DNA from: a virus
Length of the DNA: 64,000 nucleotides
Virus record (IMG/VR): IMGVR_UViG_3300049216_000067
Reading direction: 5' to 3' (one strand)
Both the position numbers and the translations under genes were made by a program. The notes below the pieces were generated by a model, which was not told where the DNA came from, made no database searches, and was given only the letters and a program-made list of their open reading frames with translations. Shown piece after piece: positions 42,565 to 50,627 of the stretch (its first letter is position 1; every line of letters begins with the position of its first letter).

Positions 42565-43421
42565 TACTGTTCCTCCTATACAACTAGGATCACTTTAATC
42601 TTAAAGAATTAAGATGTCAAGCAAGATGCGCAGCGCAAATCCAGCAACGATCAAAATTGCAACACCAAACAGAAATGCGTCTAGATCATTCATATGGCTA
42701 ACGTTCCATTGACATCTAGAATTTTCTTGTCAATCTCGGCAATCTTCTGCTCGATTTCATCTAGAACACTTTCAACCCTAATAAGACCGATTTCTGAATC
42801 GTGGATCAATGTGTACCTACCATTGTCGATAACATTGTTAATTTTATTAATGGTATTGGTCATAGATATGGCTCCAACTTCCATATATCTGGAATGTGTA
42901 TAATCATGAAGTTCGAGTATTTTGTGTTCAATTAAATAATACATTGTTCTGTATCCTCAGTTTGTTTAGATACTTCTATCATAGCAGAAAGATCTTTAAT
43001 ATTCATATTTGATGTTCCACGATTGACAATTTGTGATGTTCAAGATGACAAGATCTGCATAACCACTTGACTGTATGAGGATCGTTATAATCTTCGTGAT
43101 GTGCTTGACTCTTTGGGTCATCACACATCTCACAGGCTTTCTTAATAATATGGCCACGTTTTAATAAGCCATCTAAATCACCGTGTTCTTATTACGGTCC
43201 TATTATCCCAGCGAACCTTTTAAGACTCAAAATTTTATTTTTAATTTTTTGAAACGGACTTATTAAGAAACGTGCAGCAGCGAACCTTTAAGAACAATCC
43301 TATTAAAATTTTTAAAATTAAAGAGAGCAACTAACGAAGGTACCCCGAACAGAGAGTAGAAGCCACTCCCCGGATGGGACCCAGAAACACTGTATTTTTG
43401 ACATAATAGGATTGGACATAT

Positions 43422-43564
43422 GCTCAGCACATGTGACATATGCTGTCGCATGGCTCAGCACATGTGACATATGCTGTCGCATGGCTCAGCACATGTGACA
43501 TATGCTGTCGCATGGCTCAGCACATGTGACATATGCTGTCGCATGGCTCAGCACATGTGACATA
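43422..43564. repeat. Perfect 31-bp tandem repeat, about 4.6 copies
   Basis: Unit GCTCAGCACATGTGACATATGCTGTCGCATG at 43422, 43453, 43484, 43515 and a partial copy at 43546. Confidence 0.97.
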
Positions 43565-43630
43565 AGAGTCAAGTATTAAAACTGTGACACAGTAAGCACT
43601 AATAGCACTCCATTACAATGCATTATGGTT

Positions 43631-44194
43631 AATAGGAACTTGTCCGGACGGACATAGGGCTTGACAATACGATATTGTGACGCACAGCACAGAATAGTTC
43701 CTATTAGGTGGGCTAATAAGACTGTCTAATGTAACATATTGTGTTTCTCACACTTGACACGCGACTGTCAATCATTAATAGGACATAACATAGCTGTGTG
43801 CTGATAACGTGATGCACATCACAGATTATACAAATAGGAACTTGTCCGGACGGACATGGGGCTTGACATTATAAAAGTGTGAACCAGCGCACAGTAACGG
43901 CCTACGGCACGTAGGGATTAGTCCTATTAGTGCGCTCGGTGGACACTGCCTCAGTATGAAATTAATTAATAATAAGGCATAATAGCATGAATAGAATTCA
44001 TGTCGTTATTCGTTTGGGCTAGACTAGCTTCTATATCAAAGGGTTAATAGCAATAGGACAGCATAAGACGCTATTAGAGCCGATCTAATAGGAAAGGTAA
44101 TAAAGGGGCAGGGATAGACTGAAAGCCGCTATAAAGCGATCCTATTAGAATCAAATTGAACATAATCTTAATAGGAACTTGTCCGGACGGACAT
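43631..44194 (+). repeat. Three exact 25-bp direct repeats AATAGGAACTTGTCCGGACGGACAT
   Basis: At 43631-43655, 43833-43857 and 44170-44194. Confidence 0.95.
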
Positions 44195-44215
44195 AGGATT
44201 GTGGGGGGGGGACAC

Positions 44216-44241
44216 AAAAAAGCCCTGACTGGCAGGGCTTT
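44216..44241 (-). terminator. Intrinsic terminator at the left end of the island
   Basis: AAAGCCCTG-CCAGT-CAGGGCTTTTT. Confidence 0.75.
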
Positions 44242-44296
44242 GGTTAAGACTCACGGACGTTTCGTCTGTGATAAGACTCACGGCAGAGAGGGTTTC

Positions 44297-44676: not shown

Positions 44677-45598
44677 TCATGAATGCGACTCCAGGCTATC
44701 AATCGCATAGTCCGCGTTCATGCTCTCAGCCAATTCGATTGCCTCAAAATCATAGAATTCCTGAGAGCCTATCACCGCGTTAGTGAGTTCACTCCAAACG
44801 ACAAATTTGCCGTCGCCTACGGAGCGAACCTGATACGGACCATTTAGTCTTTTGTTGCCCATGCTCTGTATCTCCTTTGATGAATCGACCTAATAGGATC
44901 ATGCAAGGGGCATGCCAATAGCAAACAAAACAATCAGGGCGCTAATAGGATCATTCTACTAGCGTGACCCTGACAAATTTTGTCAGTCTGTGACGGTTTC
45001 AGCCCTTTAGCGTCGATAGCTGCCAGTGTCGGTGACAGCAACGTAACAGGCGACGATTGCGGCAAACATTAAGAACATTGACATATGGTGTACTCCTTTT
45101 TAGACAGTTTTGGACAATGAAACAATGTCAGTATCGTTTGACACTACATCGACGCGGCTTAAACCCGTGTAAAGAAATTTTTCCTTAATAATACGGTTCA
45201 TTGCGCGGATTGCAGCGTTGCGCGTCGATGCCTCAATGCAAACAATGATGTTCCCGCTTGCATCGTAGCCAATGGCATCATAAGTCTCGGTAGAGTCATA
45301 ATCGCCTGACATATGGTGTACTCCTTTAAGTGAGAGTGATTTAACTTAATAGCTATTCGCGCCCATAGTCCCAGTCACCATGTTGCATCGCGTCTGCGGC
45401 ATCTGCCTCGCCCTCGCGATAGGCGTCGATAATATCCCGGACGGCAATCTCCGGACTGCAATTGTACGAATTGACATACTCGCACGCTTCCATAAACAGG
45501 GTTTCCATGTCCAAGTGATCCGGAAGCAACGCATCTTTAATGATGAGCATGATTGCCGCGTTTCGCGCTTGTATCGACTGGTATACCGTGTCCGACAT
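44677..45598 (-). CDS. Small early-type ORFs (44677-44862; 45007-45084; 45100-45312; 45353-45598)
   Basis: Strong AAGGAG RBSs; leader AAAGGAGTACACCATATGTCA duplicated before two of them. Confidence 0.65.
44902..44918 (-). promoter_or_regulatory. sigma54 (-24/-12) promoter P1
   Basis: TTGGCATGCCCCTTGCA; TGACA-AATTT-TGTCA at 44971-44985. Confidence 0.8.
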
Positions 45599-45654: not shown

Positions 45655-45800
45655 TTCAATCAGGGCACTAATAGGACGATTCTACCCCGCAATGTGACGC
45701 AAAGTGACGTAAATTGTCAGTCGATTGACAATCAGGGGCACATTTTAACAAGTCGGCTCGTTAAATCTTTCAATCAGCGGTCTAGTAGCCCTTGTTTTAG

Positions 45801-49377: not shown

Positions 49378-50310
49378 TTATGCGGCCTCGCGTTGTTTTA
49401 CCTTGCTAGGTCGCGTAGCGTAGCTTAGAGCTAGATCTAATGCTCTCACTTTCAATCGATTCGCATCTCCGTTCAGGTTACTAGCTGCGCGTGCTGTCTC
49501 GGTTCCGGAGCCTGTAGTATCTCGCACTGTCTTGAGATGCGTTGCATAATAGGCGACTGCCTGCAATGCGCCCCAGACTGTACCTTTAGCTAAATCGGCT
49601 CCTGGCGCATTCACATAAGACTGAGTAATAGCTTTCAATATGTTCTCAGTCTTAGTACTCACTAGCTTTGATCCTGCCTTGACTTTTCCGATATCTGCCG
49701 GATCTACATCGAGCACACTGGAAAAGTATTTTGTTATATCCTTGTTTGGCATCTCGGTATCAAATAGCAGTTTGAATGTTTGCGCCTCATCTTTAATTTG
49801 TGCCTTAATGTTTTTCATGATTTCAGGCACAGTCGATTCATCGATGCTAGTGCTAAGCGTAGCTCCCGATACCGTTCGGATTAGCCCTTTCGTCGCTCGG
49901 CTCTTATGCTTCGAATTGTAGTCCATGGTAACTACAAGAAACGACTTTATTAAATCTCCTTTGCCTACTGTGATATCGTATTCACTCGGCAATTCAGCAC
50001 AGACTGTGATTAGAGACCCGCCTTTAATTGCCGTACCGTAAGCAATCTTTAGATCGAAGTCCGCTAGATCCGTCTGTAATGCGGAAAAAATGGTATCCGG
50101 ACGGACTAGCACATCTCTACCTGGCGCTTTAGAATAGGTGCCATCAGGGTTTTTGAAAAATACCGGACGTCTTTCTACCTGAAATGATGCGCCTACCATA
50201 TCGGCAATCTTGCTTGGATTGCCTTGGATATCGGCAGGTATTACCTTTCCCATGCCATCCACATATTGACTATTTTGCGACAGCATCGCAGTAACGATTG
50301 ACTTAGACAT
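49378..50310 (-). CDS. DUF932-family paralog, copy B (diverged)
   Basis: Aligns with copy A throughout, e.g. YYATHLKTVRDT and ASNLNGDA. Confidence 0.85.
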   Translation of the reverse strand: MSKSIVTAMLSQNSQYVDGMGKVIPADIQGNPSKIADMVGASFQVERRPVFFKNPDGTYSKAPGRDVLVRPDTIFSALQTDLADFDLKIAYGTAIKGGSLITVCAELPSEYDITVGKGDLIKSFLVVTMDYNSKHKSRATKGLIRTVSGATLSTSIDESTVPEIMKNIKAQIKDEAQTFKLLFDTEMPNKDITKYFSSVLDVDPADIGKVKAGSKLVSTKTENILKAITQSYVNAPGADLAKGTVWGALQAVAYYATHLKTVRDTTGSGTETARAASNLNGDANRLKVRALDLALSYATRPSKVKQREAA

Positions 50311-50446: not shown

Positions 50447-50627
50447 ACGGTACCTTCATATATCTAATCAGGTAAACGAATTAGGAGGAAATCATGGCAG
50501 CTTACTTTGCAACGGGTGCAATACATCGATTGGTTATCTTAAAGAAGATGTAAATTTTTATGCTTTCTCTTTCCCATGCCATCCACATATTGACTATTTT
50601 TTGCGACAGCATCGCAGTAACGATTGA
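50447..50627 (+). pseudogene. Mosaic remnant: decayed P6 copy, EndoVII-like fragment and a copy of the DUF932-B 5' end
   Basis: 50447-50487 matches 51169-51210; LLCNGCNTSIGYLKED; 50569-50627 matches 50245-50301. Confidence 0.7.

Follow-up and report, generated by a model that had tools for sequence, protein, structure and literature searches.

The non-coding DNA between the early genes and the sigma-54 island of this phage carries a tandem array of 4.6 perfect copies of a 31-bp unit (GCTCAGCACATGTGACATATGCTGTCGCATG), and each full copy contains one dyad resembling those that lie upstream of sigma-54-dependent pilin promoters in many bacteria. Our tentative reading is that the array binds the corresponding host activator and acts as an accessory sink or reservoir for it, while being a young and probably copy-number-unstable minisatellite. 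All positions given here refer to the window, the whole 64,000-nt stretch of viral DNA that was analysed.

TRF delimits the array to 43422–43564 (100% matches, score 286), in agreement with a repeat search, and identifies it as the sole strong tandem array in the window. The first-pass annotation had reported the 31-bp repeat with the same start, but its end at 43571 lies slightly beyond the last array position at 43564. Each full unit contains ATGTGACA-TATGC-TGTCGCAT, that is, TGACA-N5-TGTCG within the flanks GTGACA...TGTCGC, which is a PilR-type core with one mismatch. Four identical full dyads are located at 43434–43448, 43465–43479 (31 bp from the first), 43496–43510 and 43527–43541, as anticipated from the annotated motif TGACA-N5-TGTC(G), one mismatch from the palindrome of the island. 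The partial fifth unit (43546–43564) retains the left half-site alone (GTGACA at 43557–43562, with TGACA at 43558–43562). The 31-bp period corresponds to 2.95 turns at 10.5 bp per turn, so that the annotated spacing of about three helical turns, with all sites on the same face, holds; sites a whole number of turns apart are what an enhancer would have.

The left boundary, read from the sequence, is a 20-nt proto-unit at 43415–43434 (GACATATGCT+CAGCACATGT). It shares GACATATGCT with the units, but the 11 nt GTCGCATGGCT, a part of each full unit, is absent from it; the array is therefore bounded by GACATATGCT direct repeats. Outside these limits, the left flank TCCTATTATGTCAAAAATACAGTGTTTCTGG (43380–43414, minus strand) is identical in the aligned relatives L001 and L003, and the right flank AAGAGTCAAGTATTAAAACTGTGACACAGT (43565–43600) is likewise identical in relatives. 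No ORF spans the array and its period is not a multiple of 3. As in a minisatellite, near-identical units stand head to tail in non-coding DNA. The units contain no sigma-70-like promoter, and TGGCTCAGCACATGT in the unit was rejected as a sigma-54 motif because it lacks the −12 GC. The exact unit was not found in IMG/VR, and a BLAST search with the unit, run on every fetched locus and on the masked window, yielded chance matches of 10–12 nt only. Two 11-nt matches at 50276 and 50602 were discounted as part of a duplicated gene fragment; the start of a DUF932-like gene (~55 nt) is duplicated in its upstream intergenic region, at 50245–50300 and 50565–50625.

The tandem structure is real, because unitigs spanning the unit junction occur in several sequencing runs at raised depth. 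Logan unitigs (k=31) end at the array, which is what a period of 31 bp should cause, and two repeat unitigs, one of them across the unit-to-unit junction, occur in X1, X3, X5 and X7 at 2–8x the depth of the flanks. The assembly artefact that the annotation had named as grounds for refutation is thereby excluded. The depths of the two unitigs relative to the flanks are 7.8x and 5.5x in X1, 4.0x and 2.2x in X3, and 3.5x and 2.3x in X5, where the assembled 4.6 copies (143 bp) would give 4x and 3x. The ratios thus differ between X1 (7.8x/5.5x) and the pair X3 and X5 (~3.5–4x/2.2x), and word depth suggests ~3–4 copies in two runs and ~6–8 in one, with no read spanning the array. The assembled figure of 4.6 copies is uncertain because contigs break at the array. 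As to the copy-number variation that had been proposed for checking, presence and absence between relatives is established, but variation in read depth is only suggested. Run X5 represents a slightly different strain with changes at 43835–43858, and the array is present there too. X7 was considered as a diverged array-bearing relative and rejected, as its pieces are 100% identical where covered and represent the same strain at low coverage.

Two related contigs were found, L001/L002 (the same contig) and L003. Their non-coding block aligns with that of the window (43158–44296) at ~90% identity in long identical runs, a few indel spots excepted. In both relatives, an unrelated 22 nt, ACACGCAAATACACACGCACAC, replaces the array between flanks identical to those of the window. 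The alignment identifies the array site as a hypervariable spot in the non-coding block. The relatives keep five sigma-54 motifs and six dyads, some of the L003 dyads being paired at 21 and 24 bp. Since relatives without the array retain the sigma-54 wiring, the array is strain-specific and unneeded for that wiring, and its absence from them makes it a young accessory feature and no core control element. An enhancer would be expected to be conserved in relatives that share the regulon, and the array is not.

The source phage is an uncultured T4-like myophage whose portal protein, tail sheath, large terminase and helicase are encoded in the window, and the sequencing runs containing the stretch are moss and peat metagenomes. 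The portal shares 53% identity with its counterpart in Methylophilales phage Melnitz and 47–50% with those of cyanophages; megablast and blastn searches of the GenBank phage collection returned no close phage relative. Minus-strand genes occupy 1–43157, followed by the ~1.1-kb non-coding block that contains the array together with many TAATAGGA/TCCTATTA motifs and 30-nt palindrome-bearing repeats. The block separates the leftward early genes from a GC-richer island on its right with six sigma-54-like promoters. The recognisable signals closest to the array are an early promoter of the sigma-70 type (TTGAGT-17-GATAAT, preceded by an A/T-rich tract; 43230–43202, minus strand), ~190 bp away, which drives leftward small genes, and the intrinsic terminator of the leftward sigma-54 operon at the right of the block (44241–44219, minus strand). 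The same sigma-70-type module recurs upstream of genes in L001. The non-coding block contains no tRNAs and no Rfam family at threshold, and a sub-threshold match to asX2 was rejected as it is the terminator hairpin. Searching at the protein level for loci that carry the gene of the right flank gave no match.

Several other elements of the non-coding block are conserved or mobile in appearance. Just to the left of the array, a minus-strand segment of ~100 nt (43300–43410) is almost identical in relatives, with differences that preserve a GGAG...CTCC hairpin and with a T-rich tract at its end. It possibly encodes a small RNA, because the frame of a short ORF inside it is not conserved. A mini-palindrome, TTGTCCGGACGGACA, is fused to TAATAGGAAC at 43629–43658, 43831–43860 and 44168–44197 of the window and at 690–714 of L001. 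In this relative it occupies another TAATAGGA site in the opposite orientation, and in run X5 the middle copy takes a variant form; the element resembles a small palindromic insert, mobile or hypervariable, with TAATAGGA sites as its target. At 43754–43773, CTTGACACGCGACTGTCAAT forms a TGACA-N6-TGTCA palindrome, with a spacer one base longer than that of the enhancer dyad, and is perfectly conserved in L001 and L003; ACTGTGACACAGT (43581–43593) is conserved as well.

The island to the right defines the reference against which the array is read. Its palindrome, TGACA-N5-TGTCA, occurs exactly at 44971, 48002 and 51065 and with one mismatch at 45705. These four dyads lie 40–85 nt upstream of all six sigma-54-like motifs (44903, 45639 and 51010 on the minus strand; 45802, 48100 and 51165 on the plus strand), in line with the annotated palindrome before every one of them. 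Four dyads serve six motifs because two promoter pairs are divergent and share a dyad. The nearest promoter, TGGCATGCCCCTTGC (44903–44917, minus strand), has its own exact dyad at 44971–44985. Between 42000 and 44900 no sigma-54-like motif is present (at most 2 mismatches with intact GG/GC), so the annotated absence of a nearby −24/−12 motif, with the nearest ~1.3 kb away, is confirmed at 1,339 bp from the array end to 44903. An enhancer would have a −24/−12 promoter ~40–200 nt downstream of its sites, and the array has none.

The island and other promoters have a further shared feature. TCCTATTA follows promoter elements at a fixed distance of 2–4 nt on the minus strand (44897, 44949, 45675 and 51003), with the forms TTGCAT-GA-TCCTATTAGG after sigma-54 promoters and TAGAAT-GA/CG-TCCTATTAG after sigma-70-like −10 boxes; this may be a conserved element at the start of transcripts. 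Where TAATAGGAG stands on a coding strand, it is in many cases simply a stop codon plus a ribosome-binding site.

In bacteria, the sequence context of the TGACA-N5-TGTCA dyad indicates that it is a PilR-type enhancer of pilin genes in many lineages. A search for the dyad followed by 55–85 nt and TGGCAC-N5-TTGC matched at least 120 bacterial loci, against a few tens that chance alone might give by a rough reckoning. In 72 of the 120 matches listed, the N-terminus of a type IV pilin (GFTLIEL, then a hydrophobic helix) begins within 330 nt downstream, which strengthens the PilR-like link considered by the annotation. Many of these loci come from Oxalobacteraceae, Pseudomonas, Acidobacteriota and Thermodesulfobacteriota. 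PilR is a known sigma-54 activator of pilA (PMC6058289), but the published P. aeruginosa PilR consensus, TGT-N11-ACA (PMC8035640), does not map cleanly onto the dyad of the array and island. In the 72 pilin enhancers, extra sites with one mismatch are ~55-fold enriched over background, and the outer T>C change that yields TGTCG is the top class among them (4 of 13). Massilia pilA enhancers contain TGACA-ATTTT-TGTCGCA, and the offsets of extra sites in natural enhancers cluster at ~20–24, 31–32, 42, 52 and 61 bp. The pilA enhancer of a Massilia MAG (L087; L284 109–133) has a secondary dyad, TGACAATTTCTGTCGCAGCTCAGCA, that resembles the array unit including the flank GCTCAGCA. Host capture of the unit, as the common TGTCGCA..GCTCAGCA could suggest, was rejected: the motif occurs in 3 of 401 family genomes and the likeness is probably a coincidence.

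Comparable dyads are widespread in other phage contigs. IMG/VR contains at least 118 loci with paired exact dyads; in about half of the loci listed, a sigma-54 motif in the proper orientation lies no more than 300 nt away, mostly at 40–110 nt, and the dyad-to-dyad spacing is usually 19–24 bp with smaller peaks at ~31–34 and 42. Across 64 phage sigma-54 clusters, T>C to TGTCG is again a top one-mismatch class (5 of 24). In L254 (4055–4140), L198 (6221–6300), L223, L241 and L194, three or four TGACAA-N3-TTGTCA dyads occur with no −24/−12 motif within 300 nt, and in L254 a TATATT box follows a −35-like TTGTCA with which the last half-site overlaps.

The fit of the array dyad depends on the consensus to which it is compared. 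It matches 9 of 10 positions of the core TGACA-N5-TGTCA. The natural consensus is TGACAA-N3-TTGTCA, with inner spacer positions 78% A and 78% T, and on this refined consensus the array dyad scores 9 of 12, a score equalled at 55 other window positions, where the island dyads score 10–12. The spacer of the array dyad ends in T..C, as do 3 of 142 exact phage dyads, and these ends are rare in pilin enhancers, natural sites having A..T. The four array dyads were counted as one independent event in chance estimates. The chance of a random 31-mer carrying such a match is about 0.002 to 0.03 depending on the model, with p ~0.002 for at most one mismatch to the 10-position core (shuffle rate) and p ~0.03 for 9 of 12 on the refined consensus (from the 55 other positions). 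An extended palindrome, ATGTGACA-N5-TGTCRCAT, gave the impression of a 15-of-16 match and was dropped, as its 44 IMG/VR loci are near chance level; that level is a rough estimate on an assumed collection size, and some of the 44 are true enhancers. The enhancer-site reading of the annotation is thus partly supported: the core dyad type, the TGTCG variant and the three-turn spacing occur in natural enhancers, whereas the absence of the array from relatives and its off-consensus spacer-adjacent positions count against that reading.

These features can be joined in one account. Slippage during replication or unequal recombination would have amplified a 31-bp unit at a hypervariable non-coding spot, and the unit carries one GTGACA-N5-TGTCGC dyad of the type that bacteria place before sigma-54 pilin promoters for PilR and that the phage itself uses for its own six sigma-54 promoters, on their upstream side. 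Because the period equals three helical turns, the four full dyads would lie on one face of the DNA, where they could bind four activator dimers side by side. As no promoter lies within 1.3 kb, we propose that the array gives each phage genome an additional sink or reservoir for host activator; it would be dispensable and no dedicated enhancer. The reality of the array with its identical units, the pilin-linked dyad type, and the natural occurrence of both the TGTCG variant and the 31-bp offset support this account, and the 9-of-12 consensus fit, the rare T..C spacer ends and the 1.34 kb to the nearest sigma-54 motif count against it. Both activator binding to the array and any regulatory effect of that binding are inferred here. 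Even without the array, the dyads of the island would titrate the activator on each genome copy; the array would then add quantity and no new capability.

A neutral minisatellite without a protein partner is somewhat less probable than the sink or reservoir and still a serious contender; here slippage would have amplified a palindrome-rich 31-mer whose likeness to an enhancer is coincidental. Units that are 100% identical, relatives that lack the array and depth ratios that vary by run all fit a neutral repeat, as do the 9-of-12 match on the refined consensus (p ~0.03 per unit) and the atypical spacer containing G/C. The surrounding block is full of TGACA and GTGAC words, some of them in −35-like TTGACA, and the unit also contains the unrelated palindromes CACATGTG and CATATG. 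However, 9 of 10 core positions are kept, the sole deviation is the commonest natural variant, the G...C flanks fit the natural preference, and the ~57 kb of the window beyond the array and island hold just two core matches with one mismatch or none. The units are perfectly identical, and therefore hold no evolutionary record of selection on the dyad. Perhaps the array has an imperfect PilR-type dyad in helical phase by chance, or perhaps it was retained because of that dyad.

A distal enhancer proper, in which activator oligomers loaded on the array would loop to island promoters 1.3–7.7 kb away and raise their output, is improbable. The four same-face dyads at three-turn spacing have an enhancer-like geometry. 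Enhancers of the NtrC type can work over kilobases, and at glnAp2 the two strong NtrC sites are ~3 turns apart. Yet each island promoter already has its own dyad 40–85 nt upstream, the terminator and ~650 bp lie between the array and the nearest operon, and relatives run the same promoters without the array. Just as improbable is a selected DNA-only decoy, in which hundreds of genome copies, each with four to eight phased sites, would absorb the pilin activator, leading to pilin shutdown and the exclusion of pilus-dependent phages without a protein, with copy number as a contingency-like dial. A decoy role in superinfection exclusion is speculation and presupposes that pili are the phage receptor.

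Slightly less probable still are replication-origin iterons, or operators that bind a protein of the phage itself with no relation to PilR. In L020 (1264–1397), and also in L043 and L038, five diverged 22-bp units with TGACA-N5-TGTCA-like dyads form an array between primase-helicase and O-like initiator genes. These are probably origin iterons of unrelated phage, and such arrays can therefore serve other proteins; A/T-rich tracts also lie 100–200 bp to the left of our array. Iterons would have an adjacent initiator gene and repeats conserved in relatives, however, and here the flanking ORFs include no initiator, HTH or DNA-binding gene and the relatives lack the array. T4-like phages, moreover, rely mainly on R-loop origins and recombination for their replication. 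The least probable reading is that the array is transcribed into a row of RNA hairpins serving as a decoy, processing site or stabiliser: the plus-strand unit forms a 9-bp stem with one G-U pair and folding scores are strong (−76 kcal/mol, z = −5.0, plus; −74 kcal/mol, z = −4.6, minus), but any array of DNA palindromes gives such scores, no promoter or terminator brackets the array, and it has no Rfam match and no counterpart in the relatives.

If the array binds the host activator as proposed for the sink or reservoir, it would represent a natural case in which a virus uses bare DNA sites to tune a two-component and sigma-54 circuit of its host. Such a case would also illustrate how fast site clusters can originate by repeat expansion, and would bear on activator supply in phages that borrow PilR and on protein-free takeover of the host. 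Without such binding the array is an ordinary unstable repeat, of practical use mainly for telling strains apart and as a caution against trusting its assembled copy number. A literature search returned no natural phage array of host sigma-54 activator sites, nor one that titrates such an activator.

Among known systems, the array shares with the pilA enhancer of the PilS-PilR/sigma-54 system the TGACA-N5-TGTCA core including the TGTCG variant, dyads on the same face, and offsets of 31–32 bp. In contrast to that enhancer, it lacks both a pilin gene and a −24/−12 promoter within 1.3 kb, its tandem copies show no difference from one another where natural enhancers hold diverged sites, and its spacer ends in T..C rather than A..T. 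With the phage's own island enhancers (44971, 45705, 48002 and 51065) it has the core dyad and GTGAC(A/G) half-sites in common; the island dyads, however, have A/T-rich spacers, a promoter 40–85 nt away and conservation in relatives, whereas the array is promoterless and strain-specific. The iterons of P1 incA and the datA locus of E. coli are clusters of titrating sites. The decoy concept has also been demonstrated with synthetic tandem transcription-factor sites in yeast (PMC3322331). The concept of promoterless tandem sites that sequester a regulator is the same in all of these decoys and in the role proposed for the array; for the decoy systems, binding and effects have been measured. Like slipped-strand VNTR minisatellites, the array has perfect units, presence or absence among relatives and GACATATGCT boundary repeats, and read depth suggests a copy number that differs between samples. 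Unlike an ordinary VNTR, its unit carries a regulator-type dyad in helical phase.
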